Positions 7,240 through 54,089 of a stretch of DNA of 64,000 nt are shown here, in pieces (position 1 is the first letter of the stretch; each line of letters opens with the position of its first letter). A model generated the notes under the pieces. The model saw only the letters and a program-made list of their open reading frames with translations, ran no database searches and was not told the origin of the DNA. The translations under genes were made by a program, and so were the position numbers. This DNA comes from Takakia lepidozioides (lineage: Eukaryota > Plantae > Bryophyta): the NCBI GenBank assembly GCA_030704615.1, contig CM060731.1, positions 52,514,001 to 52,578,000 of the forward strand, given 5' to 3'.

Positions 7240-7493
7240 TTAACAATTTTGCTCCTCCATGTCATGCAACACAAAGCATGTGTCAGGAACATATCCAGCC
7301 TCCTCCATCTGCTGGATCAACCTGGATTTTCTCAGTTTGTGGATGGAATTTGTCTTCTGCGACGAATGTATGGACCTGGTTGTCCACCTCGATGATGCTG
7401 CACCTTTCTCACGCCTCCATCCTCCATCATTTTTCTCACCTTTGCTACTTACTCCCAATTGCCAGCTGCAGCCTAGATGCATGATAGCAGCAC
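7240..7493 (-). pseudogene. Decayed E2/E+/DYW-start tail of the second PPR gene
   Basis: *VLLSCI*AAAGNWE*VAKVRKMM...IEVDNQVHTF...QMEEAGYVPDTCFVLHDMEE with several stops and frameshifts; the rest of the DYW domain is absent. Confidence 0.8.
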
Positions 7494-15879: not shown

Positions 15880-17677
15880 CCACCACCTGGAAGTGACATG
15901 GAAGGTCCATGGTGACATTGTGAAAGCTATTGTAGGGTTTGTCATTCTGAACACCGCCCTGGTGGACATGTATGCCGAATGCAGGAGCATTAAAGATGCG
16001 GAGGTACTGTTCGACTGTGGCTCAACGAGATGTGGTGTCGTGGAGTGCAATGATCGCATTGGCAGCAAGGCAAGGATGTATGCATGATTTGTGCAGAGGT
16101 AGTGATAGCTGAAGGAGCAGGATAGAGTATGGGTCCATATTCATCCAAGAGGGTCGGATTTCAAGCTCCAGATTACCTATGGATCCCTATGGAAGGATAG
16201 CTACAAGAAACCTCCATGGGTAGATGGTTAGCTGGAAGCGGCAGCTGTAGCGGCACAATTGATAAAATCAGGCACCTCAACCATGACCACAGCTTTTGGA
16301 AGAGGATCAAGCGAGGGAGTCCACAATGCCTCTTCTGGCACTTATGGGCATGTGAAGATGCTTTATGAGGCAAGCAGACTGAAAGAGGCTCTACAAACTT
16401 TAAATCAAAGAGGCATTTTCAGTATATGTAGATACGTATGTGTGTCTCTTGCATAAGTGCATCAAGATGAAAGGCCTAGAAGTTGGAAAGCAGGTGCACA
16501 CTCACATTGTCCAAAGTGGATTCACACCGAACGTTTTTCTACTCAACAACCTTGTCAACATGTATGTTAAGGGGAGCATCATGGATGATCACCAAGTGTT
16601 CAACACAAAATGCCTCAACGATCTTTGATCATGTGGAATATAATGTTGGCGGGCTTACCAAGCATGGGCGTGGTACGAATGCTTTGGAGACCTGTGAGCA
16701 AATGATGCGCGAAGGGGTGAAGCCCAACCACGTCGCGTTTGTATATGTTTGCAATGCGTGTGCAACATTGAGCCCTGGACAAAGGGCAAAGAGGTGCATG
16801 GGGTATCATCAAAGCTGGAATTGTACCAAATGTCATTATGAACACTGCCTTGGCAGCTCTGGAAAAGGGGAAAGAGATCCATGGCGACATCTTCAGAGCT
16901 AGAATTGTACCAAATGTCATTCTGAACCATACCATAGCTTTGGAAAAGGGGAAAGAGGTCCATGGCGACATCTTCAGAGCTGGAATTGTATCAGATGTCA
17001 TTCTGAACAATACCCTGGTGAACATGTTTGCAAAATGTGGGTGCATCTAGGATGCAAAGGGAGTGTTCGACACTATGGCTGAATGAGACTCTGGTGTCAT
17101 GGAGTGCGATGCTTGCAGGGTATGCAAGGCAGGGACGTGGGATGGAGGCTTTGGAGAGCTATGAGCAAATGATGGGGGAAGCACATCATGTTTGTGTGCA
17201 TTTGCAATGTGCGTGCAAGCCTGGCAACCCCGGAGAAGGGCAAGAGGTGCATAGGGATATCATCAAAGCTGGAATTGTGCCAAATGTCAATCTGAACACT
17301 GCCCTGGCAGCTTTGGAAATGGAGAAAGGTGCATGGCGACATCTTCAGAGCTGGAATTGTACCAGATGACATTCTGAACAATACCCTGGTGGACATGTTT
17401 GCAAAATGTGGGTGCATCTAGGATGCAAAGGGAGTGTTCGACACTATGGCTGAATGACATATGGTGTCGTGGAATGCGATATATGCGTTTGTAGGGTATG
17501 CACAGCAGGGATGTGGAATGGAGGCTTTGGAGAGCTATGAGCAAATCATGGGGGAAGCACATCATGTTTGTGTGCATTTTCAATGTGCGTGCAAGCCTGG
17601 AAGCCCTGGAGAAGGGCAAGAGGTGCATAGGGATATCATCAAAGCTGGAATTGTGCCAAATGACAATCTGAACACTA
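15880..17677 (+). pseudogene. Degenerate PLS-PPR pseudogene with internal tandem duplications, interrupted by a retrotransposon
   Basis: LYEASRLKEALQTLNQRGI, GKQVHTHIVQSG, MFAKCGCI* and similar motifs with many frameshifts. About 16950-17290 is duplicated at about 17320-17677. Confidence 0.85.
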
Positions 17678-18901
17678 TGTCGTACGCATACATATCGCTA
17701 CACAACTACATCGCTGTCCAAAACCACACAACACATGTGCACACCACACACTAGTATACCACTAGTCCAACCACTAGGCTACAACTAGTCAGTCACTAGG
17801 CTGCCACTATGCTGCCCACTATGGCAGTTACTAGTCCACACAATAGAGGGGCTAGTGATAAAGAAGAAGAATACAAGCACAAGCTCATGCGAGCTCACAC
17901 AGCTGAAGCATAAACTCATGCATATATAACCTCATCACTCAAATACAAATCAAGCCAAGTGCACCCCACGCCATGGGGAATCCACACTACGGCGCCATAG
18001 CTAGGCGCGGTGAGGCTCAACTCGAGAAAGATGAGCCTCCCGCGCTTGCCGTGAAGATAACCACTCCAGGGCCTAAATCTGCCTTAACCCCTGGATTGAC
18101 ACTTGGGCCAATCCCAAATGTCAATATGTAAAAGCTAGCTATTTCCTAGCTAGTTTCACACTAGTGGTAAAATAACTTGACAGCTGTCGTACGCATACAT
18201 ATCGCTACACAACTACATCGCTGTCCAAAACCACACAACACATGTGCACACCACACACTAGTATACCACTAGTCCACCACTAGTCCAACCACTAGTCCAA
18301 CCACTAGGCTACAACTAGTCAGTCACTAGGCTGCCACTATGCTGCCCACTATGGCAGTCACTAGTCCACACAATCGCCCCCCTAGCTGGTGCTTAGGTCC
18401 CTCTAAGTTCAGGTAGCCACAAGATGTGATAGTTACCATAGCCTCACTAAGTCCTCAACCACTGTCCCTACTACACTCAAACTCGATAGATCAAGAGGCC
18501 GGGTGCAAGAGTTGCCCCATCGTTAGTCGTTGTCTTGCAACCTGTGAACGCTTGGGATCTCGTGTATTGACTCCTATAAGCTTGGCCTCCCATGTCTTGT
18601 TAGCTGCCTCCAGTCATATCCACTGCCACTATCCCAAGCAGTGTGGACACAACCAATCTCCGTCAGGAACCTTCTCAAGAGGTGATGTCAAGCATCCCAT
18701 ATGCCAACCCCTTGAGCATCAATCACACACCAGCATGGTGGCTGCCCCTTTGGCAGACCCACAGAGCATGCACCTCAAACCTGCAGGTACCACTGCCAAG
18801 TTTGGGTCAACTCTGCCATCGACATTGGGAAGGTGACATGACGCACAATTACGCACATGGTCCTTCCAAGTCATGCCATCCCGACCCTCCAAGATCAGGA
18901 C
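17678..18901 (-). mobile_element. 3' end of Gypsy copy 0 (INT C-terminus/PHD, PPT, B-gc-A-B repeats); the rest is lost after 29252
   Basis: Reverse complement of 28541-29239. B2 17678-17842, junction 17843-17855, A 17856-18182, gc, B1 18185-18372. The sequence resumes as tcctgaggg at 29244-29252. Confidence 0.9.
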
Positions 18902-19228
18902 TGTCAAGTTATTTTACCACTAGTGTGAAACTAGCTAGGAAATAGCTAGCTTTTACATATTGACATTTGGGATTGGCCCAAGTGTCAATCCAGGGGTCAA
19001 AGAAGATTTAGGCCCTGGACTGGTTATCTTCACGGCAAGCGCGGAAGGCTCATCTTTCTCGAGTTGAGCCTCACCGCGCCTAGCTATGGCACTGTAGTGT
19101 GGATTCCCCATGGCGTGGGGTGCACTTGGCTTGACTTGTATTTGAGTGATGAGGTTATATATGCATGAGTTTATGCTTCAGCTTTGTGAGTTCGCATGAG
19201 CTTGTGCTTGTATTCTTCTTCTTTATCA

Positions 19229-19240
19229 CTCGAGAAAGAT
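19229..19240 (+). promoter_or_regulatory. Putative self-priming PBS CTCGAGAAAGAT
   Basis: Perfect complement of 19052-19063 (ATCTTTCTCGAG) inside repeat A; no TGG tRNA-type PBS. Confidence 0.7.
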
Positions 19241-20684
19241 CAGCTCGTATCTATGAGTGCTAGATACGAGTTAGTTGTAGCACTTGTGGTTTTTGCTTGA
19301 GAATGAGAGAAACCAAGTTGTTATGCAAAGAGCACCGTGGAGCTCTTGGTTGTTAGAAGCGGAGGCGATGTGGGTTACGAGGTGGTAAACCTTGGCATTC
19401 GATCTTCAGCTTCAGAGATGAAAGCACCATACTGCAGGTAATTCCAGAGCACCTTGATGGTTTCAGATTGTGTACATGCATGAGCAAGCACGATTGGGAA
19501 GAGGACCAGTCAAGAGCAGGTTATAGTGGCTTTGGTGGCAAAGCTGAGAACTGGACTTGGGAATGCGAGCTTTCATTGTGTGAAGGATTGCAAGACCAAG
19601 CGAAAGGGCTGATTTGGCTTGGGGCAAATCAGTGCACTTTGTGGAGTATGGTGAGATTGGGTTTCAATCTCGAGCTTCAGCATTGAGAGGGCTCTTGTCA
19701 TGGCGAGAGCAGGGCTGGAACAGGAGCTAAGAGGTGCGGCAAGGCCATGGAATGTGCACCTAGGGTTTCAGAGCTTGGAAGAAGAGTTCTTGCACCACAA
19801 GAGCAGTGTCTTGTGGCTGGAAATGTAAGCCTTAGGGTTTCAGGAGCTTGGCAAAGGTTGTGGAGTGCTTAGTCTTGTCTTAGAGAGCATCAAGGAACCA
19901 AGGAGCCAAGATAGGGAGCTGATATCTCTTGTGTGAAGAGGTTGCATGTGTGGAGCATGCTATCAGCCTGGTGAAGGCTTGCACTTTCAGGTGTGGGAGT
20001 GCAAGAAAGGAAGGAAGGGGCTGGTTTCCCTGTAGGGCAAGTGGAGCATGCTTTCAGCCTGTTGAAGCTTGTATTTTCAGGTTTGTGGGTGCAAGAAATG
20101 AAGCAAAGGAGCTGATTCTCTTATGGTGAGAGTGGGGCATGTTTGGAGCATGCCTTCAGCCAATTGAGGCTCTTGTTTTCAAGCTTTAGAGAGCTAGAAC
20201 GGAAGGTCTAGGGCTGGTTTCCACTTGGAGTGAAAGAAAAACACTTGTAGGGCCTATGTGAGTTGGGGTTTCAACTTCAAGCTTGAAGAGAGCGCAACTC
20301 TTGAAGCAGCAGGTGTAGGGGGCTGGAATAGGCTCTAAGACTGATGCTATGGCCAAGGAGAGTGCTTGAATGAGCGCTCACAAGGGCTGGGAACCAGCAG
20401 GGCTTGGTTGTTTGCCATTGAGTTTAGTGGCGTGTTTGGGGAGGCTAAGTGAGAAAGAAGGCTTGGTTTGTGGCAACCACCTCATGGCTTAGGGCTACTA
20501 TGGTGGTGTGTGGGAGCCGAAAGAGCAAGAATACCTTGTTGATTTCCTCACAGCCGCCATAGCTCGGTGGAAAGAAGCCTAGAGTCCAAGAGACACAAAC
20601 CCTAGCTTGGCGTGGCTAAACCCCTTGGAGAAATGGCTAAACTGCCAGAGCGGCCATGGATGGGGTTGTGACGGGCTGTGCCCA

Positions 20685-21995
20685 TGGCCTTTGGGGCTGT
20701 GATGGGCTGTGAGGGGCTGTGACAGGCCGTGCCTGAGGCCTTTGAGGCTGTGAGGGGCTGTGAGGGGCTGTGACAGGCTGTGCCCATGGCCTTTGGGGCT
20801 GTGATGGGCTGTGAGGGGCTGTGACAGGCCGTGCCTGAGGCCTTTGAGGCTGTGACGGGTTGTGAGGGGCTGTGACAGGCCGTGCCTGAGGCCTTTGGGG
20901 CTGTGACGGGCTGTGACGGGCTGTGTCAGGCCGTGCCTGAGGCCTGTGGGGCTGTGAGGGGCTGTGACAGGCTGTGCCCGTGGCCTTTGGGGCTGTGAGG
21001 GGCTGTGATAGGCTGTGCCCAGTGGCCTGTGGGGCTGTGACGGGCTGTGCGGGGCTGTGACAGGCTGTGCCCATGGCCTTTGGGGCTGTGATGGGGTGTG
21101 AGGGGCTGTGACAGGCCGTGCCTGAGGCCTTTGAGGCTGTGACGGGCTGTGAGGGGCTGTGACAGGCTGTGCCCATGGCCTTTGGGGCTGTGATGGGCTG
21201 TGAGGGGCTGTGACAGGCCGTGCCTGAGGCCTTTGAGGCTGTGACGGGCTGTGAGGGGCTGTGACAGGCCATGCCTGAGGCCTTTGGGGCTGTGACGGGC
21301 TGTGACAGGCTGTGCCTAGTGGCCTGTGGGGCTGTGACAGGCTGTGCCCATGGCCTTTGGGGCTGTGATGGGCTGTGAGGGGCTGTGACAGGCTGTGCCC
21401 ATGGCCTTTGGGGCTGTGATGGGCTGTGATGGGCTGTGACCGGCCGTGCCTGAGGCCTTTGAGGCTGTGACGGGCTGTGAGGGGCTGTGACAGGCCGTGC
21501 CTGAGGCCTTTGGGGCTGTGACGGGCTGTGAGGGGCTGTGTCAGGCCGTGCCTGAGGCCTGTGGGGCTGTGACGGGCTGTGATGGGCTGTGAGGGGCTGT
21601 GACTGGCTGTGCCCATGGCCTTTGGGGCTGTGATGGGCTGTGAGGGGCTGTGACAGGCCGTGCCTGAGGCCTTTGAGGCTGTGACGGGCTGTGACGGGCT
21701 GTGACAGGCCGTGCCTGAGGCCTTTGGGGTTGTGACGGGCTGTGAGGGGCTGTGACAGGCCGTGCCTGAGGCCTTTGGGGTGTGAGGGGCTGTGAGGGGC
21801 TGTGACAGGCCGTGCCTGAGGCCTTTGAGGCTGTGACGGGCTGTGACGGGCTGTGACAGGCCGTGCCTGAGGCCTTTGAGGCTGTGACGGGCTGTGACGG
21901 GCTGTGACAAGCTGTGTGGGGCTGTGACGGGCTGTGACAGGCTGTGGCGAGCTGTGACGGGCTATGAGGGGCTGTGACAGGCTGTGCCCAGTGGC
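20685..21995. repeat. Tandem array in the 5' leader of copy 1: about 51-bp higher-order units built from GGGCTGTGA(C/G/T) 10-mers
   Basis: Units start at 20721, 20772, 20823 and so on; two main variants (cctgaggcc / cccatggcc). Confidence 0.95.
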
Positions 21996-22842
21996 CTGTG
22001 GGACTATGACGGCTGTGACCAGTGAGCTGTGTGGGCCTGTGCTGGTCTGTGGTGGCCCGTGTTGACCTGTGGACGGCCTGTGCTGACTCGTGGAGGCACT
22101 GGTGGACTGCCTAAGGACTGGCATGTGGTCTGGAAGGCCGAATTTTGAAGCTCGTGGAGGGCGGTTTGAGGAGTATCTTCATGATATTCCCATGGTCATG
22201 CAAGTGAGGGAAGAGAGGAGAGGAAGAGTGTTGGGATGAGGGCATGCTGGGGTTAGGCATTGCTTTAGCTTCTCTTCCTCGTAGTTTCCACCCTCTCATT
22301 AGACCAAGACCTTTCCGTAGGTGGAGGCAAGAGTCAGTCCGGGTTTGGGCTGGGGTGTCCTTGCAGGAGCAACACCATGGAGATGTTTTTGGTGTGGGGG
22401 AGTTGTCGTTCTGATTTCTTGTGTTTGGATCCCCTCCATACCTGCATGCTTGACTGTGCATCATGCTAGTTTTGTGTGGGCGCTTGTTTTTATAGGTGAT
22501 TGGTCCGGATTTGATCACCGGCCAGTCTTAGAGCATGTTGTCGATGGTGAGGTTGGGGTGATGACCAGCCAGACCATCAATGTTTCTCCTGTGGTGAGGT
22601 TGGAGGTGATGACCAGCCAACCATAGGAGTGCTTGCGGTGGATGCAGGTACAGGTGTAGGCTATGTTAGGAACTTAGTATTCCAAACCATAAGCCGCAAC
22701 AGGTTCTCTACCCGGTTACCTTGTGGAGAGGGGGTTAGGGACATGTTCATGACCGGTTGAGTGTCAACACGGAGGTGCCACTAGTTGTTGGGACAGTGCC
22801 GGTTCGAGCACTAGCGATACTAGTGGGTACACGAGACGAGGT

Positions 22843-25317
22843 GTGCGGTTTAGGCCACCTTCACCTCCTGTGTTTTCCACGGAAGGTTCTGATTCGGATT
22901 GTGAATCAGGAGGACTCATACCGGCGGTGCAAGTTGTTTCTTTGTCATTGTTGTGGGACACAATGGAGGAGATGTATGGAGCTACCAAGGGGCCACGAAG
23001 GTACTCTAGGGTGGTGGGCACCATCGAGTTGGATGATTTTATCCAAGAGTTTGATAGTTGGTGTGATTTGCAGCAAATGCGCAATCCACAACTATTTACG
23101 CCTTTCATGGCATGGAAGGGGCTGTTTCAGCACCTTGAGGGGCCGCCTATGGATGATTACCATGAGTTCAGGCGGGGGCATGAGGTTGAGATCGAGGAGT
23201 GGAGGATGTACTGGTCACCCAACTATGTCTCCACTAGGGGCACTAGAGCCACAAGGGCAGTGGCTGCACCTGCCGCTGCACCGGCAGCTTCAGCAAGTAG
23301 CAGAGGGACTAGTGGGACTGGTGGTACAGTAGCTACGATGTCCACCCAAGCCACTACCGCATCAGCACTAGTACCCGTACCTGCCTTCAACCCTGTTGTG
23401 GAGTTCTTCGAAGAGTTGAGATGGAACTACCAAGGGGTGAGGACAGAGAAGTTGCGGAGCTTGCAAGAGTTCCAACGGAAGCCGACCGAGAGCTTGAGGG
23501 AGGCTTTCACTCGCATGAGGCGCTTGATAAATGTAACCCAAGGGGTTACGGAAGCTCAGGCAGTCCAATTCTGGTATGGGATATTGGACAAGGAGCTGAG
23601 GAGAAGGGTGCGGGATGCAACTCTCCTACAAGTGGCCTAACCCACCTTAGCAAATGTGTTTTTGCTGGCAGAGCGGATAGAGCTCAACATGGTGGAGGAA
23701 CGAGTGGTCATGGTGGGATTTGCTAAGGAGACGCCACGGGGTAGTGGTGCTCCTAGCCAACCACTACCTCAACGTGCTCAAGGCAACAAGGGGGCTCAGG
23801 TGAAGCTCAGGGAAGGGCAGAGAGGACCTCAGATGCAGGGGTCTCTCCCTTCATTTGCTGGCCAACAACGGGCGGATGTGGTGTGCTGGACATGTGGAGG
23901 ACCCCATGTCAAGAAGGATTGTCCAGAGGGAGGCAAAGGGCCGGCACATGCACAGCCTGCACAGTTGCAGTGTGGGCATTGTGGCAAGCACGGGCATGGA
24001 GAGGCCCAGTGTTATGGTTTGCATCCTGAGTTGCGCCTAGGTCAGTTCCAAGGGAATAATGGTGGCCGGGGGCGAGGTGGAGCAGCCCAGAGAGGACGAG
24101 GTGGCCAGCCACGAGGTGCAGGCCAAGGCCAAGCTCAACATGGCCAAGGACGCGGAGGTCAGGGTGTTGACCAAGGCATGGCCAACCGGCTTCAACAGCT
24201 AGAGCAGAGGCTCGCTGCCATGGCTACAGCTCAGGTGGTACCGGCTCTAAGGCCGGATGGTCCACCTCCTGTTCCTGAGGGAGGAGATATGGGAGGCATG
24301 GGATTCATGTGTGGAGCAGCACTACCACTAGTGCAGGTGGAGTCTGCTGCAGCCGTGACTCGAGGAGCAGCACGAGTTCCTGAGCCACGAGGTACAGAGG
24401 TGGAGTTGGATCCACAGCGTGGGGAGGCAAGCCGTCAGGCTAGGCTTCCTCAGTCATTCACATTGGCGGAGACAATGTCGACGCCATCCATGGCACCTAG
24501 TTCTCGCCCGACTGTTACCGAGGCGGAGGTTACTATGCCATTGGGGAGAGCTACACGGGTAGCAGCACTACCTAGTGTTGCCAAGGCTACGGCAGCTAGT
24601 GTGCTGCTAAGAGCGGCCACATCTGTGTGCCAGGCTCCATTGTTCTCGGCTACCATGATTACGACGCCGGGGGTAAGACCAGCTGAGGTGTTCAGGCTGG
24701 CAGCTACACTCTATGAGAGTGGGGAGGTTACTTCATCTTCTGCGGAGATAGTAGGAGGTGTAGTGCCGGAGGGATCCTCGGATTTGAGGGTCAATACTGC
24801 CACGGCGGCGCCATGGCAAGCTGCAGCTACCAGGTTGATGGAGCTGCCAGCTAGGCCAGCCATTGAGCGCGCCATGGTGACACCTGGAGTTGTCATGTTA
24901 GACAACCAGGATGGCATTTTCTGTTTGAGTGGACCGGCAGGCAAGAGGTACCGGCCACTGCGGGTCTTGTTGGACTCGGGAGCTCAGCCATTGATGCTGG
25001 GCAGAGCTGCTATTGCAGGCTTGGGCCTCACGGAGGCGGATATGGAGCCTTGTCCTTTCCAGATACAGACGTCTCTGGGAGGATCGGAGCAGGCTCGGGG
25101 CATGACACGGCATGAGTTGGCTATCAGACTACGGCCGGATCACCCTACAGATGGCTCAGTGATGCGAGCCAAGGCCATTGTGACAGACGCAGTATCATAC
25201 GATGTCCTGGTTGGTGGGGCAGTGTTGTACCCCATGGGCTTCACCCTTGGGAGGAGTCAGCTTCCTATAGGCCTGCATGGCAGTCAGGGGAGGGCCGGCG
25301 TGTGCAGCTCCCTGTGA
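22843..25317 (+). pseudogene. gag (two zinc knuckles) plus aspartic protease of copy 1
   Basis: CWTCGGPHVKKDC and CGHCGKHGHGEAQC; LLDSGAQP protease motif at about 24967-24990; CAA>TAA stop at 23638; frameshift near 25250. Confidence 0.85.
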
Positions 25318-26927
25318 CGTTCATAGGAGGAGTTGCGGTTGCCCAGCGAGGCAAGATGCCGACACTAGCAGCATTCACAGCGGCAGTGAGTTGGCCTAGA
25401 GAGTTGCTTGAGGGCAATGCTCATTCAGAGGATGTACCACCTCCGAGAGAGCAAGATGACATGTATGGTATGGCGGAGTTGCCTACCATGGTTGCTCAGA
25501 CTCCATTGTGGGGCACGAGCAAGGATTTGCAGCGGGATGCTGATCGACGGGTGCAACAAGCCTGGGTGGAGGCTTTTGTACCGTCAAGAGAGGAGGAGAG
25601 TGCGGGGATTGCACCAGGACCACCTCAGTTGTCTCCATTGGACATCACACCTATTGTGTGGCAGTATCCGGATGAAGGCATTTATCTTCTGGACTTGTTT
25701 GGCGGGATCAGCACCGGATTGGCTGTTGTGTTACAGGCAGGTGTACGAGTTCGGCGTTACCTGTATGTGGAGAGGGATGAGACTGCACGACGCGTTTCAC
25801 TTCGCCATGTTGCTCAGTTGGTGCAGCGGTACCCTGAGTTGTTGTCGGTGTCTGCAATTTGTGGATATCAGCAGGCCTTGCCAGCAGACATTTCGTTGCT
25901 GGGGGCGCAGGATTTGGAGCGGGTTGGCTCCATTGATTTGGTAGTGGCAAGTTGGCCCTGCCAAGGGCATTTATCAGCCGGGCATGGCAATGGATTGCGA
26001 GACTCGAGGTTGGGTCTGTTTCGGGAGATAGTGCGGATTTTGCGCCACTTGCAGCTTCATCAAGCTGTATCTCCAGCATACATCTTGGAGAATGTGCCAC
26101 TGATGGGCGATTCTCGGGCCAGGGTGATGGCCAGTGTGCATCAAGTCCGGTCGTGGCTTGGGTCAGCAGTGTTGCTAGATGCAGCTACAGTGGGGTCACG
26201 GGCTCATCGTCCACGGCTATGGTGGACTAACTTGATGCCACCCGCACTGCTCAAGCGTGCATTTGATGGGGTGCAGTGGCCAGCACATCTCACAGTGGAT
26301 AACATTCTGGACACAGGGAGGCAGTCTCAGCGTGTGAGACACGATGACCGTTCGCCTTTGGCAGTGGTCAACAAGGTGGGTCAACCACGGGCAGCATTAC
26401 CTACACTGCTCAGCTTCCCAGGATCGCATGCTTTCCGGGATAGTGGACCTGGCCTCCTGTGGGATGCTCAGTTGCAGCAGTTAGTGGAGCCTAATGCTGA
26501 CGAGCGTGAGCGGGCAATGGGTTTTACCACTGGTACCACGGCGGTGTCGTCTCTTTCTGAGGCATCACGTCGTCAAGTGTTGGGGCAAGCAATGGATCTC
26601 AATTGCTTGACCTGGATTATCAGCTTGGCTCTGGCTGAGCAACGCAGAGTGCGGAGTACACTTCCCTCAATGGTCTCTCTGCCTACCGAGACGGTACAGG
26701 CAGTGAGTGGGGGCGAGCATGTGAGGACCACGGGGTGCATGCATCCATGGCACACGTGGGAGGTGCTCGAGGTTCAGAGGGAGTTGGCAGCCAAGGCGGC
26801 TGTGATGGATGAGGTTGGGGATTCTTCTCGGGTTGATGAGGTCCTCAAGGATGAGATGATGGGGCAGGATGAGGCCTTGTCATTGACTGAGCAGGCAGGG
26901 AGTACTGCTCAAGAGGTTGCGGCATAG
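25302..26927 (+). CDS. C5 cytosine DNA methyltransferase domain (DNMT3-like, non-permuted) inside the pol polyprotein
   Basis: Motif I LDLFGGISTG, II VERD, III ADI, IV SWPCQG (catalytic PC), VI ENV, VIII AHRPRLWWTN, IX ERERAMGF, X LGQAMD; core about 25680-26640. Confidence 0.9.
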   Translation: MQLPVTFIGGVAVAQRGKMPTLAAFTAAVSWPRELLEGNAHSEDVPPPREQDDMYGMAELPTMVAQTPLWGTSKDLQRDADRRVQQAWVEAFVPSREEESAGIAPGPPQLSPLDITPIVWQYPDEGIYLLDLFGGISTGLAVVLQAGVRVRRYLYVERDETARRVSLRHVAQLVQRYPELLSVSAICGYQQALPADISLLGAQDLERVGSIDLVVASWPCQGHLSAGHGNGLRDSRLGLFREIVRILRHLQLHQAVSPAYILENVPLMGDSRARVMASVHQVRSWLGSAVLLDAATVGSRAHRPRLWWTNLMPPALLKRAFDGVQWPAHLTVDNILDTGRQSQRVRHDDRSPLAVVNKVGQPRAALPTLLSFPGSHAFRDSGPGLLWDAQLQQLVEPNADERERAMGFTTGTTAVSSLSEASRRQVLGQAMDLNCLTWIISLALAEQRRVRSTLPSMVSLPTETVQAVSGGEHVRTTGCMHPWHTWEVLEVQRELAAKAAVMDEVGDSSRVDEVLKDEMMGQDEALSLTEQAGSTAQEVAA

Positions 26928-27232
26928 CAACCACGGGATGTGTCCTCTACCTCTAAGTCTGCTGGACTTAAGGTTGCAGTTACGAAGGGCAATTGGGAGC
27001 TTGACATTGGACCTATTGTCACTAGAGGAGAGAGACGACGTATACGGCGGTTCCTGAGGCTTACAGGAATTGCTTTGCCTCTCGTGCTACGGTGGATGAG
27101 CATGAGAGACATGTTCAGGTTGTGCATCGATTGGGTTTGGTCAATAGGGATGCGGATGGATTGAGTCGCAATCCATGCACGAGCCAGTAGGATGACACTG
27201 GAGCTCGGTGGCATGGTGAGACGGACGAGGAG

Positions 27233-28813
27233 ATGGTGCCGGGATGGCACGCATCTACATTTTTGTGTATCTTGGCATCGGGAGGTCAGATTGGACCTAC
27301 AACAGGGATGACTGTAGACGGAGTGTCTGAGGACCCTGAGGCTAGTGATGAGCTAGGTGGTGCCAGAGATATACATGAGGATTCGGCTGTGTTGGACTAC
27401 CTCCGCACGGGAGACACGGCAGCCATTGTGACTGCCAGGGAGAGGGATCGGATCCTGCAACGAGCCAAGAGGTTCAAGTGGGAGGGGATACACCTACTTC
27501 GAGTGTGGGAGGATGGTCGGGTGAGGATTGTGCCTCACCCCACACAGCGTGCACGGTTAGTGCGGCATGCCCATGAGGAGTTGGGGCATTTTGGAGTGCG
27601 ACGCACTCACAGTTTACTGCAGGGGCAGTATTGGTGGCGTGGTATGCATACAGAGGTGCAACAGTTCATGGCTAGGTGCATGGTGTGTGACAGGGTGCGT
27701 GCTTCATTCAACGCCCCTACACCACAGTTGCATCCTTTACCAATCATGGGATTGGGCTACAGGTGGAGTCTTGACTTCGCAGGACCGTTGCCACTGACTA
27801 TGCGCCACCACATATATGTGTTGGTGATGGTGGAGCACTTCTCCAAGTGGATTGAGTTGGTTCCATTGCCTGACAAGGCTAGTGAGGGGGCTGCGTATGC
27901 ATTCTTGGATCGTGTGCTTAGCCGATTTGGTGCTCCAGCTGAGGTACTCACGGACCAAGGGAGAGAGTTCTTGGGGGAGTTTCAGGCTTTGTGTGATAAA
28001 GCCTTGATAGACCACCGCACCACTTCTCGGGATCATCCTGAGGCCGATGGCTTAGCAGAGAGCGTTGTTCAGACGGTGAAGAGGGGTTTGCGCAAGTATG
28101 GCTTGCAGAAGGGACACCTAGGAGATTGGGATCTTCAGGTTCCTTGGTTAGCCATGGGCTACAGGTTCAGCAAACAAGCATCACTTGCCTCCTTCTCACC
28201 ATATTTCCTTCTCTTTGGCCGAGAGCCGGATTTGCCTGCAGCCATTCGTAGGGACACTGCTCAAGTCCTTAACCTTGGCGACCCGGACGTGTGGGTACGT
28301 GCATGTAATCAGCGTGCAGAGTTGTTCAAGAAAGTCATGCCCATGGCTTTTGAGAACCTTGCCATTGCACAGCACCGTGATACGTTGAGGTATGCCACTA
28401 TACGTGGTGGAGGATATCGTCCTGGGGTTCGGAGGTTTAGCCCTGGTGACTATGTTTATTTGCACCAGACTGCTCCTACGACTCTGGATGTTACTGCAGG
28501 GTGTGTTATTCTGAGGGTTCGAGAGGTGTTGCCCTCAGGGGTCCTGATCTTGGAGGGTCGGGATGGCATGACTTGGAAGGACCATGTGCGTAATTGTGCG
28601 CCATGTCACCTTCCCAATGTCGATGGCAGAGTTGACCCAAACTTGGCAGTGGTACCTGCAGGTTTGAGGTGCATGTTGTGTGGGTCTGCCAAAGAGGCAG
28701 CCACCATGCTGGTGTGTGATCGATGCTCAAGGGGTTGGCATATGGGATGCTTGACACCACCTCTTGAGAAGGTTCCTGACGGAGATTGGTTGTGTCCACA
28801 CTGCTTGGGATAG
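27233..28813 (+). CDS. Integrase (HHCC, DDE) with C-terminal PHD finger, copy 1
   Basis: HEELGH..CMVC, WSLDFAGP, LTDQGREF, LAE; CMLC..CDRC..WHMGC..WLCPHC (C4HC3). Confidence 0.92.
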   Translation: MVPGWHASTFLCILASGGQIGPTTGMTVDGVSEDPEASDELGGARDIHEDSAVLDYLRTGDTAAIVTARERDRILQRAKRFKWEGIHLLRVWEDGRVRIVPHPTQRARLVRHAHEELGHFGVRRTHSLLQGQYWWRGMHTEVQQFMARCMVCDRVRASFNAPTPQLHPLPIMGLGYRWSLDFAGPLPLTMRHHIYVLVMVEHFSKWIELVPLPDKASEGAAYAFLDRVLSRFGAPAEVLTDQGREFLGEFQALCDKALIDHRTTSRDHPEADGLAESVVQTVKRGLRKYGLQKGHLGDWDLQVPWLAMGYRFSKQASLASFSPYFLLFGREPDLPAAIRRDTAQVLNLGDPDVWVRACNQRAELFKKVMPMAFENLAIAQHRDTLRYATIRGGGYRPGVRRFSPGDYVYLHQTAPTTLDVTAGCVILRVREVLPSGVLILEGRDGMTWKDHVRNCAPCHLPNVDGRVDPNLAVVPAGLRCMLCGSAKEAATMLVCDRCSRGWHMGCLTPPLEKVPDGDWLCPHCLG

Positions 28814-29252
28814 TGGCAGTGGACATGATTGGAGGCAGCTAACAAGACATGGGAGGCCAAGCTCGTAGGAGTCAATACATGAGATCCCAAGCTCAAGTTC
28901 ACAGGTTGCAAGACGGCGACTAACGATGGGGCAACTCTTGCACCCGGCCTCTTGATCTATCGAGTTTGAGTGTAGTAGGGATAGTGGTGGAGGACTTAGT
29001 GAGGCTATGGTCACTATCACATCTTGTGGCTACCTGGACTTAGAGGGACCTAAGCACCAGCTAGGGGGGCAATTGTGTGGACTAGTGACTGCCATAGTGG
29101 GCAGCATAGTGGCAGCCTAGTGACTGACTAGTTGTAGCCTAGTGGTTGGACTAGTGGTATACTAGTGTGTGGTGTGCACATGTGTTGTGTGGTTTTTGGA
29201 CAGCGATGTAGTTGTGTAGCGATATGTATGCGCACGACAGGACTCCTGAGGG

Positions 29253-30480
29253 TTTTCGACAACGTGCGGTCGCCGCCTCGGCGGTCTGGTGCCGCCCAGT
29301 GGCATCCGTTCCCAACACTTAGTGCATCAACACTCAATCCTGTCGGGGGGGGGGGGGGGGGGGTCAAAGGTGGACGTGGTTGGACGGGGTGGCCCGCGAG
29401 GGGGCAACCCGCGGCACGCCCGACTCGATCCCGGAGTATCAACATCCTCCGCATCACCTAAAATTTGGCCCCGGTCCCTCTACGATTGTGCCCGGCAGCC
29501 TGTATTGGATCAGATGCAATGGGTGGCTCCTCGCCACAAAAAACGGTCGCTCTAGGGCCACAATCGATATGTGGTACTACCTCCCCATCCTCGAGGGAGA
29601 CGGGTCGACGTTTCCTCACCATCGCATCCTAATTAACACACGCCACCAGCATTTTCATTTCTCAAAAACCGTTGGCAAAAAGACCCTATGCCTTAGCCTC
29701 GGGGCTTTCTTGAAATTGGTAACCAAAGACGGAGCATCCCTATGGTGCTAGAGAGCCCAAGACAATAAATCCTTCCTCACGTTCTATCTTCAGGATGCCC
29801 ACACCATGGAAAAATTTGTTGAGACTCAGCGCTTTGCGCTTATCAGATTGAACCACATTTTGGGTACGTGAATCCTAATTACACCGTTTATCCTTTCAAC
29901 CCCAAGACCCACAACCAAAACCGCCAATCCAAAACCCAGCACCATAAAGAAAAACAAACACCCTAACCCAGTACCATATGGAAAGAAACAAAATAAAAAT
30001 AAAAACTAAGAACCCCAAAAGGCCCTAAACCCTAAACCCAGAAAGGCCAGCCGTCGCCTCCTGCGACACCCTCACGTAGCATTTGGTGACGTGTTTTTTC
30101 ATTTTTTTGCGCCGAGGGTCGCACCCTGCGACGGAAAGCCGTCGCGGGAGGCGACGTGTTTTTATTTATGTATGGTGCCGGGGGTTGCAAGCAGCGATGG
30201 CCCGCCGTCGAGATTACCATTTACACATTTCAAAAAAAAGGCGGGGCGCAGGCGTGCGACGGCCGGGCGTCGCACGTAGGCGCCGCGCCCTTTTTTTCCC
30301 CCCCAAGTGCTTGAAGCACCTCCTTCTCCTCCCGTTTTCATTTGTTCTTTGGGAGAGAGGTAGTTCTGAGAGTGGGGTTTAGGGTGGAGGAGAAACGCAC
30401 CTGTTGCTGAGCCCGAGGTGGTCGCAAGGCCCCAAGGAGTTTGCCCCAATGCCGCTCCAACGCCCAAGGTAAGCACCGCC
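29253..30480. mobile_element. Probable CACTA-type subterminal repeat region (terminus missing)
   Basis: gcgac/gtcgc and gacgtgttttt motifs resemble 57990-58690 next to the CACTA terminus. Confidence 0.4.
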
Positions 30481-30815
30481 TCCTCTCTCACTTTCTCTCT
30501 TGCTTTCTTGCCCTAAGCACGGGCTGATCTCTCTCTCCCCTATATGGTAGGAATGTCGCGCAGAGGCGCGATCTAAATGAGCTGAAGAGAGAGAGAGAGA
30601 GAGAGAGTCGTGGTGAGCGGGGGAGAGACGCCTTGCAGCGGCGGGGACCCGCGCCGTTGGCAGCCGCGACAGCACCGCAGCAGCTCGCTTGAAGCACCAG
30701 TAGCCACAACAGCAGAGGTAGGTCAGGGTGGGGACATGGTAGACCTTCCTGTCTTGTCATGTGGGATCAAGGGAAAGATGTCGAGAGTTGTCCATAACTT
30801 GTATATCACATCAAA

Positions 30816-30818
<3 letters not shown>

Positions 30819-30908
<90 letters not shown>

Positions 30909-30920
30909 CAGAGAAAGAGA
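30819..30920. repeat. (GA)n microsatellite
   Basis: Direct reading. Confidence 0.95.
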
Positions 30921-30974
30921 TGATGAAACAAAACAAAACAAAAAGAGGTTGGGGGGGGAGTTACTGAGCAGAAG

Positions 30975-32560
30975 GGGTTGGGCTTTTGGCTCAGCCTCGA
31001 GACTTTTAAAGTTGGTAAACAGAGGTACATGCACAATTCCCTTGATAGATTTGAAGAGAGCGTCTCTTTGGTGAGAGAACCCCAGACATCAAAAAATGAA
31101 TACTGTCTTCAGATTGCCCACACAACGGGCAATTGCACTCTCCCTTTCCTCTCTGCTTCTGTTTACTGTTCAAAGGTAGTCTTCCTGCCCTGAGTTTAAA
31201 TTTCAGTATGGTGCCAAGAGTGGGATAGACCCTTGAGCGCATCCATGATGTCCTCCCCCATGTCACAGACTAGAAACAGGTTCAGGAAAGTTTTCTTCTT
31301 AATTTTCATTTTCATCGGACAATTTTCTGGTAACAGACATGGCTTTGGACTCTACACTCTCTAAGTCAGGTTTATCCAGCAAGGTCAAGACTTGCGGGTC
31401 CAGATTCAGATCCTTGAGAATCTCTTCTACTCTCTTCTCCCAGGGCTTACCCTGTTTGACAGGGCGGTCCTATTTCCAAGATATAGAGTCGATTAACTTT
31501 GGATATCTGGTGTTGGACATATGTTGCAGCTGAACCCACCATCTTACCTTGAATTTATCTTGTCTGGAGCTTGAAAGAGAGCAGCACAGAAGAGAGGGAG
31601 AGAGAGAGAGAGAGGTAGAGAGGGACAGAGAGAGGGAGTGAGAAGGAGACATCAGGGGGCAACAAAGAAAATAAAATAAAAGAAGGTGGGGGGGGGGGGG
31701 AGTGACTGAGCAGCTGCTGCTGCTCAGTCACACCGGATCCCCCCCCCACATTTTTATTTTTTTTCTTTGTTGCCCCCTCTCTTGGGGAAACAAAAGGGAC
31801 AGATCCTACCTCTTTCAGGGGCTGACGTTGGTAGTAAGACTTACTTTCACGTACAGAATTAATCCGGGTTTTCCAGATATCCTCTATAAATCCCTTCACA
31901 CAAGCATCAATCTGATGTGTGTGAGTTGCCCAAAAACTAGGCCTCAGAAGGGGCTGGGCTTTTGGCTCAGCCTTGACACTTTCAAAGATAGTAAACAGAC
32001 GTACATGCACAATTCCCTTGATAGATTTGAAGAGACCGTCTCTTTGGTGAGAGAACCCCGGATAGTGTATCAGAAAATGAATAATGTCTTGAGGTTGCCC
32101 ACACAATGGGCAATTGCACTCTCCCTTTCCTCTCTGCTTCTGTTTGCTTATCAAAGGAAGGCTTCTTTCCCCAAGTTTAAATTTCAGTCTAGTGCCGAGA
32201 GTGGATAGACCCTTGAGGTCATCCAAGATGTCCTCCCCCATGTCATAGACTGGAAACAAGTTCAGGGAAGTTTTTTGCCTAACTTCATTTTCACCAGACA
32301 ATCTCATGGCAACAGATATGGTTGGACACTACAGCCTCTAAGTCAGATTTATCCAGCAAGGTGAAGACTTGCGGTTCCAGGTCCAGGTCCTTGAGAATCT
32401 CTTCTACTGTCTTCTGCCAGGACTTAGCCTGTTTGACAGGTCGGTGGGTGGTCCTGTTTCCAAGATATAGAGTCGATTAACTTCGGAAATCTGGTGTTGG
32501 ACATATGCTGCAGCTGACCCCACCATCTGACCTTAAACTCATCTCGTCGGGAGCTTAAAA
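30975..32560 (-). mobile_element. Two tandem copies of an internally deleted LINE 3' fragment
   Basis: CPLCGQ..D..HFL zinc-finger end; homologous to 54090-54790; copies at about 30975-31575 and 31790-32560. Confidence 0.55.
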
Positions 32561-32569
32561 GAGAGGGAG

Positions 32570-35500
32570 AGAGAGGGAAGATACTTTTTGTCATGTCAAG
32601 ACAAAGACAAGACCCCTAGGTCGTTGTCATGAATAAGAAGAATAATCAGACATATCAGCCACTTAACAGTGGCACCATCCATCAATCATCAAGCTTAGAA
32701 AATCCAGAATTACATCCATGCACAGTAATGTGTTCATGTCAGTATTATTCATAACCCAAAGAGTATGCCACTGATGCTAATTGACCACCAGTCATGATCA
32801 TGATATACATTCAGACGTCTGGGTGGGATGGCGGGTACTTGGCCATATTTTGGCCTTGATGTGTTGCAGGTCAAATGGTCATACATATTTATTGTCCGCA
32901 AGCTGTAATCCAAGAATACTTATTCAAACCCCATGAGTGTCATGGAGGGTTTTTTTAAGAAATTAGAGAGAACAAAATGAACACTTGGACATCACAGATT
33001 TTAAATACCTTGCCCTGCCAGTATTGGTTTAGACTGGTCTGCAGCACAGCTTGCCCCCACAGGGGAGGTGGATATGTCTGGTAAGTTTTCCAGACTACCC
33101 CTATACCTTTAATTCTTGCTAGAGCTGAAAATCAAAGTTCATGACACAACAAGGTAAAGATAAAGGACTGCATACACATCCTGCGACAGTATATGATACT
33201 GTCAGTACACCCTTTACATCATTCCACATTTGACCATGTCATTACACCATGTCCAGGGGGTATTTCCACTTGACCACCCTGGCTGCCTCAAAAACCAGTT
33301 ACCAGTTATATATTGCTGCCATATTTCATTGTCAGCCAAATATCCATAGGCAAAATCTTCACCATACCCTGGCCTAAGCATCTAGCTAACAAAGCCATCC
33401 GGGTTGGAACATAACACGGGCCAACATGGGTACCCGAATAGCTGCAACAAACAATTCCTTGCAGCCTCTCAAATTGTTACCATAAGGTAAGCAAAGCAAA
33501 TTAGTGCCTAGAAAACAAATGGTGTCTCTCACACAAGCCATCATAAACCCGGCTGTCACAACAAAGCAGAGGTCTTCCACTGGCTGGGCCAAAAATAGCC
33601 CATCGTAGAAAGCATTACACTTGTTCTTAAAAAATAACGAAGGAAAGAGGTAAGATCAAGAAAAACCATAGAGTAGTTTAGTTTTTCAACATTTTAAGAT
33701 GAGTCCCTGGTAAGCGATTCCTTCCCCTGCTCTGCAATCCCACTTGGCATCCAGTAGCACCTAGACATTAGAATATTAAGTGGAATCCCTCACCTGTGCC
33801 CGTCCCAAAAACAACCACAACGCATTGTGAGTTAGTGAGGATGCATGAGGTGAGTAACAGACTCCCACACTTGCTATCGAGGTCAAATACACTTCAATCT
33901 AAGCGCAGAGAATGCCAAGGAAAGCAGGGAAGCAAAACAAACAGAAAAAGAACATTTTTTACTGTCTGGGGGAGAGTCGTCATCTCTCCCCAAGCCTAAC
34001 CGTGCAGGGAGGACTCCACCAGCACCACATCACTGCTACCTTAACCAAAGCAAAGTCTTGTCAAGCACAAGAAAAAAGAGCTTGGTCTCAAAAGTTAGGG
34101 TTTATAAAGGGAGGGAGAGAGACTTCCTTGTTCTACCAAGACGCCGCCATTCATCAAAGATCCAGAGGAGGGCTCCTAGGGAAACGTCATAAGCACGCAG
34201 GTGGTACCTCTGCCATCACTGCCGCGGTTCCCTTGTGCAGCAAAAAAACAGACAACTGAGACAGTGAATCTTCCCTCATCTCTAAGCCACCGCCTAGGCG
34301 GCGCTCACAGGAGCCATAAACACTCATTCTCGCAGCGCAAAAAGAAAGACATTAGGGTTACGCAGGGTTTTCCCCTGTCTGGCCCGTCATTCATCCTTCT
34401 CAGGATGAAAACATCCGCCAACCTGTACGCCCGACGGACTTTGTCCGTTTCTCATTCGCGGAAGATGAAAGACATCGTGCGTTCATCCTGTCTTGAACTC
34501 GACGGATGCAATCCGCATTTCATCTAGGTTAGATGAAAAACATTGGGGGTTTAAAACAACTTTTTTATACCTGTCTGGCCCGTATTTAGGTCATGTCAGA
34601 TGAAGTCCTTTTTTCATCCAAGTTGGATTGAAAAAATAAAAACTGATGGGAGTTTTGTAACTCACAAGTATTTAGTGAAGAAATGTTTCACTAGGGAAAA
34701 AAATTGTATTTTGGATGAAAAACATCCAAAATTCCCTGCAACCCAATTTTTCAAAGATGGAAGTCGGGACAACAATTCCATAAACCCAGTTTCCAAAGGG
34801 AGAGAGAGGGAGAGAGAGGGAATGAGAGGGAGAGATCAGGAAACCAAAAAAAAAAAAAAAAATGTGGGGGGGGGGGGGGAGTGACTCAACAGCTGCAGCT
34901 GCTCGGTTACCCCCCCACCCCACATTTTTTTTTTTCTTTGTTGCCCCCTCTCTCCCTCTGTCTCCCTCTCTACTGGGAACCGGCAGGTTGTTATCAATGT
35001 TGATTTCCTGTTTTTTCACCCATACCGGATGAAGTTTTGACAGCGGCTCATCCATCCTCTATCGGCTTTTTCATCCATACCGGATGTGCCACCATGATGG
35101 ACACTGAATTACCTTTAGGATGGTTTTTTGGTTTTTTTCATTCCTCTTTTATTGATTCTAATCCATACGGGATGAGTCACCAAAGAATGAAAAATTACCT
35201 CTATGAAGGTTGTCAACAACATCCTATTTTTCATCCATACCGGTTGAAAAACTACCAGGATAATAATTTTTCATTCCTCTTTCATTGACTCTTTTTTATC
35301 CATGACGGATGGTATGAGGAATGATGAATTACCTAAGTGGAGGTAAATCGTTGCCACGGATGATATCCCCTACTTTTTCATCCTAACAAAGTGATTTGTT
35401 TGTGGATGACAAGTACAGATGATTATGGCCTGGAATTGATCTTAACTACCCCTAATTATGATTAATTATGGGGAAAACCCTAACCCCTACCCTAAAACCT

Positions 35501-37350
35501 ATTTTTAACTGTGCCATGGATGAAATCCGTCAGGGTAGAAGGTTGTGGTATACTGTTTTTCATCCACGGATGAAAAATCGGGAAAAAAAAAAAAAACCCT
35601 ATGTTGTCTCTCCCGCTATCAGAAGCACGCGATGTGCTTCTGAGCTCGCGGGGAGAATGTTATGGCGGACGTGCTTTGGTGGCTGCCCCATTTGTGGTGT
35701 CGTACCCATGCTGGACGAGCGCTTGGGGAGGCGCGAAGGCGGCGCCTTGTCTCTCTTGCAGCGGGAAACACTGCTGTGAATGCAGTGGCATCTTCCCTCC
35801 TCTGGCTTTTATTTTTTGCAATGGCATGTGTACTGGGAAGTCTCTCTCCCTCCCGTCTATTGCCTTGCAAGTTTGTCTACTTTGCTTCATTGCTCATGTG
35901 TTTTGTGGAGGCAGCTTGCTGCGGGTGGTGATGGCGCATAACCCTCTTCCCCAATCGCTTAAGGTGCCTTTGGAGTTTAGGGATCCTTGTGTTCTTATCT
36001 TCTTCTCTTGCTTTTGAGATTCTTAGTTGACATCGATGACAAGTGTGAGGGTCTATGATTCACCTGGGGTTCCACAATCCTCACTAATCCGTTGATTTTG
36101 TGGGGGCTTGTGATGGGACCAGGTGAGGATCCTCACCTACTTTGAAGTTTCTTGAGCATGCAGTTGGGATATGGGCTGAGGAGACCTCTGAGTTATTGCG
36201 CTTTGAGGTGGCTGCTGCTTGCAGCCCCGATTTCAACCCGATTGCTCCTGGTTTGGCATGCTACAACATATGTTTTGGCTTTTGTTGTTAGACTGCCGTC
36301 GATGGGGCAGCTCGACATGTCTGGCTCGTCTCCTGAGGCCTGCATACAGACCATACCCTATCTTTTGATCTTTGACAGCAAGGCATGTGGATCACTGAGC
36401 TAGGTTGTAAGTTCTTTGGGCCATAGAGGATCTAATTTTATGTGGTATGTTTTTGGCGGTTTTGGGTCTCTATGGACATGGTGGCCTTGGATGTTTATGG
36501 CGGCAGCCTAATAAGGCACCGACCTGCTCATTTTCAAGCCTGGTTCTGATTTGTAATGGATCACAGTGAGGTGTTCTTTGCATGCTTCAGCATGGACTTC
36601 TTGAAGGATGAGGATGGTAAGCTGTAATGGGATCCTACCTACACTTTTGGCTTTGTCATGACATCAGGCCTATGACATGCAATCTGGTTTTTTATAGGCA
36701 AAAGAGGCTGGATCTCGGTTGCTCAAGTTACAAGTCTTGAATTTGCAATTTGACAGGCTGAATTCACATTCCCTTGACACCTTGTATGATCACATGTCTC
36801 GGGGAGAATACAATGGTATAGAATCTATTTCATCATGCCCAAGTAGGATTGCTTGGTGGCATATTTTGATTCTGACAAATTGCAGGCTGGTCCTTATGCC
36901 TTGGCTGATGCATGACCTACGGTAATTATTGGCTGAAAAGGTAAGATGCTGCAACATGTGGGTCATGCCCAAGATGTATGTGTGAAAACGTGTCTTGAAA
37001 TGGTAATAGGGCAGGCTGGACCATGGTACCTTGCCCTTTGCATGACCTCAACACTTTATGCTCCTTCAATACATGACCTGCTGGTAAGGTATGTGAGCAG
37101 GCTGAACCAAGTTGCCATGCAGCCTGCATAGAGGCGACAATATCTTATCTTGTCCCACACAAGAACAAACCCCGACCTCCCACCCTCTTTTGTCTTGGAT
37201 GATTGGGTGGTGTCATTTGGGATGATTTGACAAGACTGGAAGTGTGAGATAGTGCCCTGTCTAGGGCTGGTTATGTCTGTAATTGACAATGACCCTTATG
37301 GGTCTTGTCCATGTCTTGACATGACGTGAATATCTTCCCACTCTCTCCCT
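32570..37350. mobile_element. Non-autonomous foldback/TIR-like element with diverged inverted arms
   Basis: gtcatgtcaagaca..gacaagacc at about 32590 is inverted at about 37284-37326; ggatgaaaa/ttttcatcc repeats in the centre. Confidence 0.45.
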
Positions 37351-38199
37351 CTCTCTTTTTAACTTTTTCTACCCCCTCTCTCCCTCTATGGGATTTGTTT
37401 TGTGAGCAGCACAAAAGAGAGGAGAGAGAGAGAGAGAGAGAGAGAGGGGGAGCGAGAGGGACAGATCAGGAAACAAAAAAAAAAAAAAAAAAAGATGGGA
37501 GGGGAGTGACTGAGCAGCTGCTGCTCAATCATCCCCCCCCCCACCCATTTTTTTTCATTGTTGTCCCCTCTCTCCCTCTGTCTCCCTCCTCGGAATTGGC
37601 CGGTTGCATCAGTGTTCTTTTCATGTTTTTCCATCTATACCGGATGGATTCTAAACAGTGTTTTCACTTGCCCTATAAAGTTTTTCTATCCATACCGGAA
37701 GATTTACCTGGGTGGACACTAAAATACCTCTAAAAAGGGTCTATAATTTTTCATTCCTCTTTTATTGACTTTCATCTATGTCATGGTTTTAGTCATGGTT
37801 ATCTAGAATTACCTACTTCTAGTTAACTAGGACATTTTAGATATTTATATTTATATTTTGTGTGTTGGGACTTCATTTGGTCTCACATGCCAAGTGAGGT
37901 GTTGAGCCTCACTTGAGACATGGAGATAGGTTTTCCCCTTGTGAGTGTTGAGGAGGCTCATCTTCTTGTAGTTGAGCCTCTATGAGCTTCTCTCACCTCC
38001 ATAGCTCTAGGTATTGAGAGGGAGTGTGTTGAGGGCTTTGTAGGGTGGATTCCTTTAGCAAAGGTGCCATTGGCTTGACTTAGTTTATGTGATAGAGTGG
38101 ATTTCACTTGGAAGGACTAGGGCTTGTTCTTCATGTGATTGCTTCATGCTTTGAGAGCTTTCATTGTCTTCTACTTCTCTCATTTCTCATCTCTTATCA

Positions 38200-38211
38200 C
38201 TACAAGAAGAT
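38200..38211 (+). promoter_or_regulatory. Putative self-priming PBS CTACAAGAAGAT
   Basis: Perfect complement of 37960-37971 (ATCTTCTTGTAG) inside repeat A. Confidence 0.7.
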
Positions 38212-39504: not shown

Positions 39505-40050
39505 TATGCTCAGACTATACCTATGTTAGTATACCAAACAGGAGCTTGTCCCTTTGACTATACCTCTGTTGAGGTATCACCATATGTGAACCCTAATGTG
39601 AGACTATACCTCTGTTAGTATACCAAACATGAGCTTGTCCATTTTACTATATCTCTATTGAGGTATCACCATATGTGAACCCTAATCAGCTCAGACTATA
39701 TCTCTGTTAGTATACCAAACAGGAGCTTGTCCCTTTTACTATACCTCTGTTGAGGTATCACCATATGTGGACCCTAATCAGCTCAGACTATACCTCTGTT
39801 AGTATACCAAACAGAACCCTCATTTTCAGACTATACCTCTGTAAAGGTATCATCAACATAAGGGACCCTAGCAGCCTCAGACTATACCTCTGTTAAGGTA
39901 TCAACAGTGAAAGGACTTACTGAAATTTAAGGGCCTTTGGAGGATTGTTTGGAAGATATTTGAGGGCCCTTAGAGGAGTATTTGGAGGATCTTTGGGGTC
40001 CTTGGAGGAGTGTTTGGAGGATCTTTGGGGTCCTTGGAGGACCCTTCGAG
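39505..40050. repeat. Tandem repeats in the 5' leader of copy 2 (about 91-bp gactatacctctgtt units, then about 33-bp tttggaggatc units)
   Basis: Direct reading. Confidence 0.85.
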
Positions 40051-54070: not shown

Positions 54071-54089
54071 TTTTTAACTTTTTCTGCAG

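Follow-up and report, generated by a model that had tools for sequence, protein, structure and literature searches.

The 64,000-nucleotide window analysed here, from Takakia lepidozioides (Bryophyta; GenBank assembly GCA_030704615.1, contig CM060731.1, positions 52,514,001 to 52,578,000), contains copies of a Gypsy-type retrotransposon whose repeat sequence is split into two segments, termed A and B. Copy 1, located at 18902-29239, begins with A and ends with B (the A..B form); copies 0 and 2 terminate in B-A-B. We consider it roughly an even chance (probability about 0.5) that the integrase of this family cuts a palindrome lying inside the long terminal repeat (LTR), leaving the ends of the cDNA unused, and that copy 1 has lost a B-A unit through recombination between its two B segments, B1 and B2.

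Boundaries and target site of copy 1

Copy 1 starts with TGTC and ends with GACA, and self-BLAST revealed no direct repeat between its two ends. The tetranucleotide GGAC flanks the element on both sides, immediately before TGTCAAG on the left and after CACGACA on the right, while a 5-bp duplication does not fit (AGGAC versus GGACT). The repeat-less insertion with a 4-bp target-site duplication (TSD) reported in a preliminary description of this DNA is thus confirmed. The minus-strand end of copy 0, B-GC-A-B, contains matches to segments A and B of copy 1 at 97% and 98%, respectively (Table 1).

The proposed target, the integrase gene of copy 0, was clearly recognised on the left, where it extends over 717 nt at 93.5%. 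On the right, the match beyond the duplication is limited to 9 nt, after which 5 of 30 positions are identical. A 9-base match at a fixed place has a chance probability of ~4e-6, which points to a second rearrangement 9 nt away from the insertion. The window does not include the upstream part of copy 0, in whose place stands the sequence from 29253. Auto-integration of copy 1 into itself was ruled out, as copies 0 and 1 are just 93.5% identical in this region.

Element termini are halves of an internal palindrome

Relatives of copy 1 comprise 80 loci from one scan of short-read contigs, a set of viral contigs yielding none. Relatives with a named source belong to Calypogeia, Riccia, Marchantia, Sphagnum, Klebsormidium and Haematococcus and, by source name, reach liverworts and a moss. 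The 3' end could be classed at 46 loci; the other 34 were left out because the contig ends before or at B, B has no match, or the ends are altered (L045/L046, L077/L079, L032 and L034). Merging loci with shared flanks gave 35 distinct 3' ends, 20 with B only and 15 with B-A-B. The A..B form is therefore real, and with its 4-bp TSD it is a regular class and a recurrent product. In run X1, A, B and the 3' internal region have similar summed contig depths (~0.9-1.0 million), as expected of mostly A..B copies, but such depth is not a measure of copy number and was given no weight.

All 35 distinct 3' ends stop at the B half-site, and 13 of the 14 distinct 5' ends begin at the A half-site, either unchanged or differing by one base, the start of L044 being damaged. 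These half-sites are the two halves of CACGACA-NN-TGTCA, as had been claimed for the ends of copy 1. The spacer of the palindrome is 2 nt long (GC, AC, GT or AT) in all distinct relatives scored (18/18) as well as in copies 0 and 2 of the window; two nucleotides is the overhang length that retroviral integrases leave. Ends defined by the polypurine tract (PPT) or the primer-binding site (PBS) were not found as termini among the distinct ends examined, and neither the window copies nor the 46 classified loci carry a full B-A at both ends.

Exact 4-bp duplications flank 7 of 11 two-ended relatives, and none of the 11 displays an exact 5-bp duplication. They are present in 4/5 B-A-B relatives, the fifth having a damaged start, and in 3/6 A..B relatives, two more matching at 3/4 positions and one showing none. 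For copy 2, flanked by TCTA, a paralogous empty site near 51986 has one TCCA only, and this single 4-mer fixes the 4-bp duplication independently. The length that had been regarded as anomalous was thus correctly measured and is the norm of this family; among plant LTR elements surveyed, 93.4% have 5-bp and 6.2% 4-bp TSDs, the length being lineage-characteristic (PMC6317226).

Anatomy of the LTR and of the A|B joint

The sequence after the terminal TCA of segment A is complementary to a site within A. The complementarity spans 12 nt in copies 1 and 2, 16 nt in L004 and 11 nt in the distant L076, with different sequences in these four; a 12-nt complementarity like that of copy 1 occurred in 0/200 control 30-mers. 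Overall, 9/16 A1 ends have a complement of 9-16 nt in A (controls ≤3/200), the 7 that fail being old copies. The predicted fold of copy 2, like that of copy 1, has the self-primer paired. The PBS is, by this pairing, of the self-priming type, following the Tf1/Tcn1 pattern. With the start of B at the PPT and the end of A at the self-priming PBS, the LTR made by reverse transcription is predicted to be B-NN-A. Region R is contained in A, on the 3' side of the self-primer at 19052, so an A..B element, having no 3' R, should not copy itself. The earlier view of copy 1 as a dead end is upheld, its reverse transcriptase (RT) and RNase H being deleted as well. A small hairpin with a similar loop and different stems follows the PBS in copy 1 (19243-19270) and copy 2 (38215-38245).

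In 10/15 relatives and in copy 2, the A|B joint of B-A-B ends is blunt and connects the end of U5 exactly to the first base after the PPT. Three of the 15 retain bases of the PBS or PPT, sometimes together with filler, one is an overlap join and one is unclear. The joint of copy 0 consists of CT from the PBS, 9 nt of filler and A from the PPT; in run X1, one contig of 67 nt spans it with zero differences, the filler being rare in that run, where the blunt joint occurs too. The A|B joint is, on this anatomy, the putative product of ligated cDNA ends.

Two of the altered loci bear on the palindrome. At L077:3361-3878 and L079:1412-1929, one locus in two assemblies of which only the 3' side is available, B-GC-A is followed by the PBS and then by an inverted A(180-1) ending in TGACA, an arrangement resembling plus strong-stop DNA that snapped back and was integrated through the inverted half-site. 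L045 (6942-6953) and L046 (11516-11527) have lost the internal palindrome in a deletion bounded by ATGA microhomologies, which suggests that a break at the palindrome was repaired; an integrase cutting integrated copies would also promote B1/B2 recombination. The B-A of L032, which runs into the PBS, was not counted as a circle or tandem, as a collapsed assembly explains it.

Proposed mechanism and origin of the A..B form

Ordinary reverse transcription, consistent with the anatomy displayed by the copies, would yield B-NN-A..internal..B-NN-A. The integrase would make a 2-nt staggered cut in the left CACGACA-NN-TGTCA, whose halves would be joined to the target 4 bp apart, placing A at the left end and a short piece of B at the right. 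Host end-joining of the two unused cDNA ends, through a blunt or filler joint, would then produce A..B-NN-A|B. In the least certain step, B1 and B2, which are separated by 340-420 bp, may recombine during repair or later to give A..B with the duplication intact, an element that, without 3' R, would not be copyable alone.

The choice of the left palindrome is suggested by the 5' ends. None of 16 distinct 5' ends (14 relatives and 2 window copies) is an A-B-A start, an outcome with p ~1e-4 if circles were opened at either palindrome. This contradicts a symmetric opening of circles and indicates that the left palindrome is preferred, from which we infer a cut on linear or unfinished cDNA. A DIRS/Ngaro-like templated copying, in which the transcript enters B2, joint and B2 are inherited without end-joining and A..B arises by later deletion, directly accounts for the missing A-B-A starts, for the mostly uniform joints (10/15) and for the greater divergence of B1/B2 than of A1/A2 in copy 2. 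However, the joint consists of exactly the PPT-defined and PBS-defined cDNA ends, primer remnants or filler peculiar to the locus are seen at four joints (those of three relatives and of copy 0), divergence is about the same for the A pair and the B pair in five old two-ended relatives, and the integrase is of the DDE type, with no tyrosine recombinase found in the element ORFs (open reading frames) scanned. We consider templated copying improbable.

The age of the insertions was compared between 11 B-A-B and 19 B-only copies, L006 and L009 being excluded. Nearest-neighbour divergence is 0.097 for B-only and 0.082 for B-A-B (p 0.027), and the distance to the column majority is 0.080 and 0.067, respectively (p 0.058). 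The oldest class contains 7 B-only and 0 B-A-B copies, and pure later conversion reaches a log-likelihood (lnL) of -18.2 versus -19.7 for a constant share. As B-only copies are slightly older, B1/B2 recombination is favoured over a 1-LTR circle and appears to stand ahead of the direct route to A..B. This alternative had been named in the preliminary description, whose preferred origin, a 1-LTR circle or a double cut, is not established.

With the same internal attachment site (att), A..B could also have been born directly, from a 1-LTR circle opened at the palindrome or from linear cDNA cut at both. This origin would fit the share of A..B among distinct 3' ends (20/35) and in the youngest class (5/9), the exact TSDs in 3/6 two-ended A..B relatives with two more matching at 3/4, and the lack of a mixed-state locus among nine re-assembled loci; L077/L079, ending on an inverted A half-site, make a half-site anywhere in the cDNA seem usable, and HIV-1 2-LTR circles have been reported as precursors linearised by integrase (PMC4372172). 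The age trend leans toward later conversion, symmetric circles should give A-B-A..B as frequently as A..B-A-B whereas A-B-A was seen in 0/16, and the products of a 1-LTR circle, a double cut and B1/B2 recombination are identical in sequence, so that copy 1 alone cannot show a direct origin. Direct birth is a possibility that we regard as tentative.

Several observations weigh against an internal cut followed by B1/B2 recombination. The mechanism is derived wholly from inserted copies. The youngest class is already 5/9 B-only, the likelihood gap is only 1.5 with an age proxy that includes subfamily divergence, and a mixed B-A-B/B-only state was found in 0/9 insertions seen in at least two assemblies. 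An integrase that cuts one palindrome should accept a 1-LTR circle too. In copy 2, B1 and B2 differ at 3/87 sites and A1 and A2 at 1/420 (p 0.017), a difference not expected if one B were freshly copied. L057 is without a duplication, and L006 and L009, 99.4% identical with different flanks, are probably a chimera at B. The interpretation of L006 (B-A-B) and L009 (B-only) as an allelic pair was rejected, since their flanks differ and the B of L009 is merely unmutated.

That one chimera, and the fact that no read bridging 29239/29240 could be shown, the runs consisting of contigs only, would be compatible with the window assembly having collapsed a B-A-B end into B. In the same window, in contrast, two B-A-B ends and a tandem array of 1.36 kb are resolved, and three B-only ends recur in two assemblies each, making collapse very unlikely.

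Relationship to known elements

Judged from its sequence, copy 1 is a Gypsy element resembling KnitGypsy-Dnmt3 of Klebsormidium nitens, for which DIRS-type A-coding-B-A-B repeats with Gypsy domains were described (de Mendoza et al. 2018, PMC5890265). The family displays the Ty3/Gypsy order protease-RT-RNase H-integrase with a DDE integrase, copy 1 itself being without RT-RNase H, together with a self-priming PBS, a PPT, TG..CA termini and 4-bp TSDs. Two full terminal direct LTRs are lacking in all copies examined. As in the published account of KnitGypsy-Dnmt3, Gypsy domains are combined with a Dnmt3-related methyltransferase (DNMT) within Pol and the same repeat layout (PMC5890265), the A-ORF-B-A-B arrangement being found in copies 2 and 0 and 15 distinct relatives. 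Because this layout was published in 2018 (PMC5890265), the permuted arrangement is already known. The portion of that text consulted is silent on the TSD, the palindrome, the priming site, the A..B form and the mechanism. A literature search for the mechanism retrieved only PMC5890265 on this clade, subscription journals, theses, Repbase Reports and bioRxiv supplements being outside the search. Integrase proteins of K. nitens are 52-55% identical and are not equated with the published KnitGypsy-Dnmt3 copies; no K. nitens protein is among 45 long DNMT-bearing matches.

Split A..B-A-B repeats are shared with Ngaro/PAT-like DIRS elements, as stated for SymbioDIRS-Dnmt3 (PMC5890265). Those elements carry a tyrosine recombinase, in contrast with the DDE integrase, PPT, PBS and 4-bp TSDs of the copy 1 family. 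Tf1/Sushi and Tcn1 similarly lack a tRNA PBS and have a PBS complementary to the predicted 5' end of the transcript, but they integrate by way of their cDNA ends and have a complete LTR on each side, and Tcn1 has a chromodomain where the copy 1 family has a PHD finger (PMC6317226). In HIV-1 and foamy virus a DDE integrase also cuts an internal CA-..-TG palindrome, although there it is reported to arise from joined cDNA ends and to constitute a side route (PMC4372172, PMC1180852, PMC1905944). In the copy 1 family the palindrome is encoded in U3, with 2 nt between CA and TG, and its use is apparently the sole route.

Whether DDE integrases act on circular or uncut internal junctions is an old question of retrovirology, argued from side reactions of HIV-1 and foamy virus, and it becomes testable in a natural family whose termini are all halves of an internal palindrome. 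The mechanism at family level is the surprising part; copy 1 itself may have come from a 1-LTR circle, and it adds the A..B class without by itself proving circle integration. A DDE-integrase clade of algae and bryophytes with att inside the LTR, cDNA ends never used, 1-LTR circles integrated as a normal product and about half of insertions born as repeat-less dead ends that LTR finders do not see is conceivable, though less likely than not. Structure-based surveys that require two LTRs (as PMC6317226) would miss A..B elements, which have no LTR pair, and would undercount a methyltransferase-carrying family with close relatives, 60-73% in the DNMT domain, annotated in Marchantia polymorpha.

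Coding content and surroundings

Copy 1 carries a gag-like region, a protease motif, a C5 methyltransferase domain and an integrase with PHD finger. Pfam gave no match to the gag-like region, which is labelled gag/protease from motif and position. The closest solved structure to the methyltransferase domain is DNMT3A (E 1e-8). Copy 2 has RT-RNase H-integrase-PHD, its closest solved relative being Ty3 RT (E 1e-67). The deletions are complementary (24944-27113 versus 42900-44135), copy 1 keeping protease and DNMT without RT-RNase H and copy 2 the opposite. The complete order gag-protease-DNMT-RT-RNase H-integrase-PHD was found in L004, L011, L014, L070 and others. No recombinase family was detected in 10 element ORFs scanned, where the rve integrase is present, and Pfam revealed no chromo match at the integrase C-terminus, which carries the PHD finger instead.

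Table 1. Features of copies 0, 1 and 2 in the window.
Feature	Position	Strand	Remark
Copy 0, 3' part	17678-18901	-	integrase end/PHD, PPT, B1, GC, A2, filler joint, B2
Copy 0 B2	17843-17678	-
Copy 0 joint	17855-17844	-	CT + 9-nt filler + A
Copy 0 A2	18182-17856	-
Copy 0 B1	18373-18185	-	followed by GC
Copy 1 left TSD	18898-18901	+	GGAC
Copy 1 A1	18902-19228	+	TGTC start (right half of att palindrome), TTATCA end; probably 3' U3 + R + U5
Copy 1 predicted self-primer	19052-19063	+	12 nt complementary to PBS, pairs in predicted fold; putative transcript 5' end
Copy 1 PBS	19229-19240	+	right after CA ending A1; changes jointly with self-primer in copy 2
Copy 1 tandem repeat array	20662-22018	+	5' leader
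Copy 1 gag-like region	22753-25317	+	zinc knuckles, aspartic protease motif LLDSGA; in-frame stop 23638-23640
Copy 1 Dnmt3-like C5 cytosine methyltransferase domain	25680-26597	+	PF00145, E 1e-8
Copy 1 integrase	27191-28813	+	H2C2, rve, D,D(35)E spacing, C-terminal PHD finger; RT/RNase H missing upstream
Copy 1 PPT	29063-29072	+	directly 5' of B; same motif before B in relatives
Copy 1 B	29073-29239	+	TTGTG start, CACGACA end (left half of att palindrome); probably 5' part of U3
Copy 1 right TSD	29240-29243	+	GGAC
Target remnant	29244-29252	-	9 nt of copy 0 integrase gene past duplication
Copy 2 with TSDs	37775-46690	+	A..B-GC-A-B (37779-46686), TCTA on both sides
Copy 2 A1	37779-38199	+
Copy 2 PBS	38200-38211	+	then gag, RT-RNase H-integrase-PHD, PPT; protease, DNMT missing
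Copy 2 B1	46092-46177	+	followed by GC
Copy 2 A2	46180-46600	+
Copy 2 B2	46601-46686	+

Several annotated genes of M. polymorpha encode a C5 methyltransferase domain with 60-73% identity to the DNMT of copy 1, two of them together with RT or RNase H domains; these genes are probably element-borne. L076 (1637-9335), which represents a distant family with ~52% integrase identity, displays the same A..B-A-B layout, a 4-bp TSD and self-priming, and tblastn gave no DNMT match in it.

PPR genes and fragments are numerous in the window (2131-9266, 15900-17677 and 58700-59150), and the PPR flank at 17500-17700, with a summed contig depth like that of the retrotransposon, may be highly repeated. The intervals 29253-37778 and 46691-55413 are occupied by several diverged copies of a non-coding repeat family with GA and G/C runs, into one member of which copy 2 is inserted.

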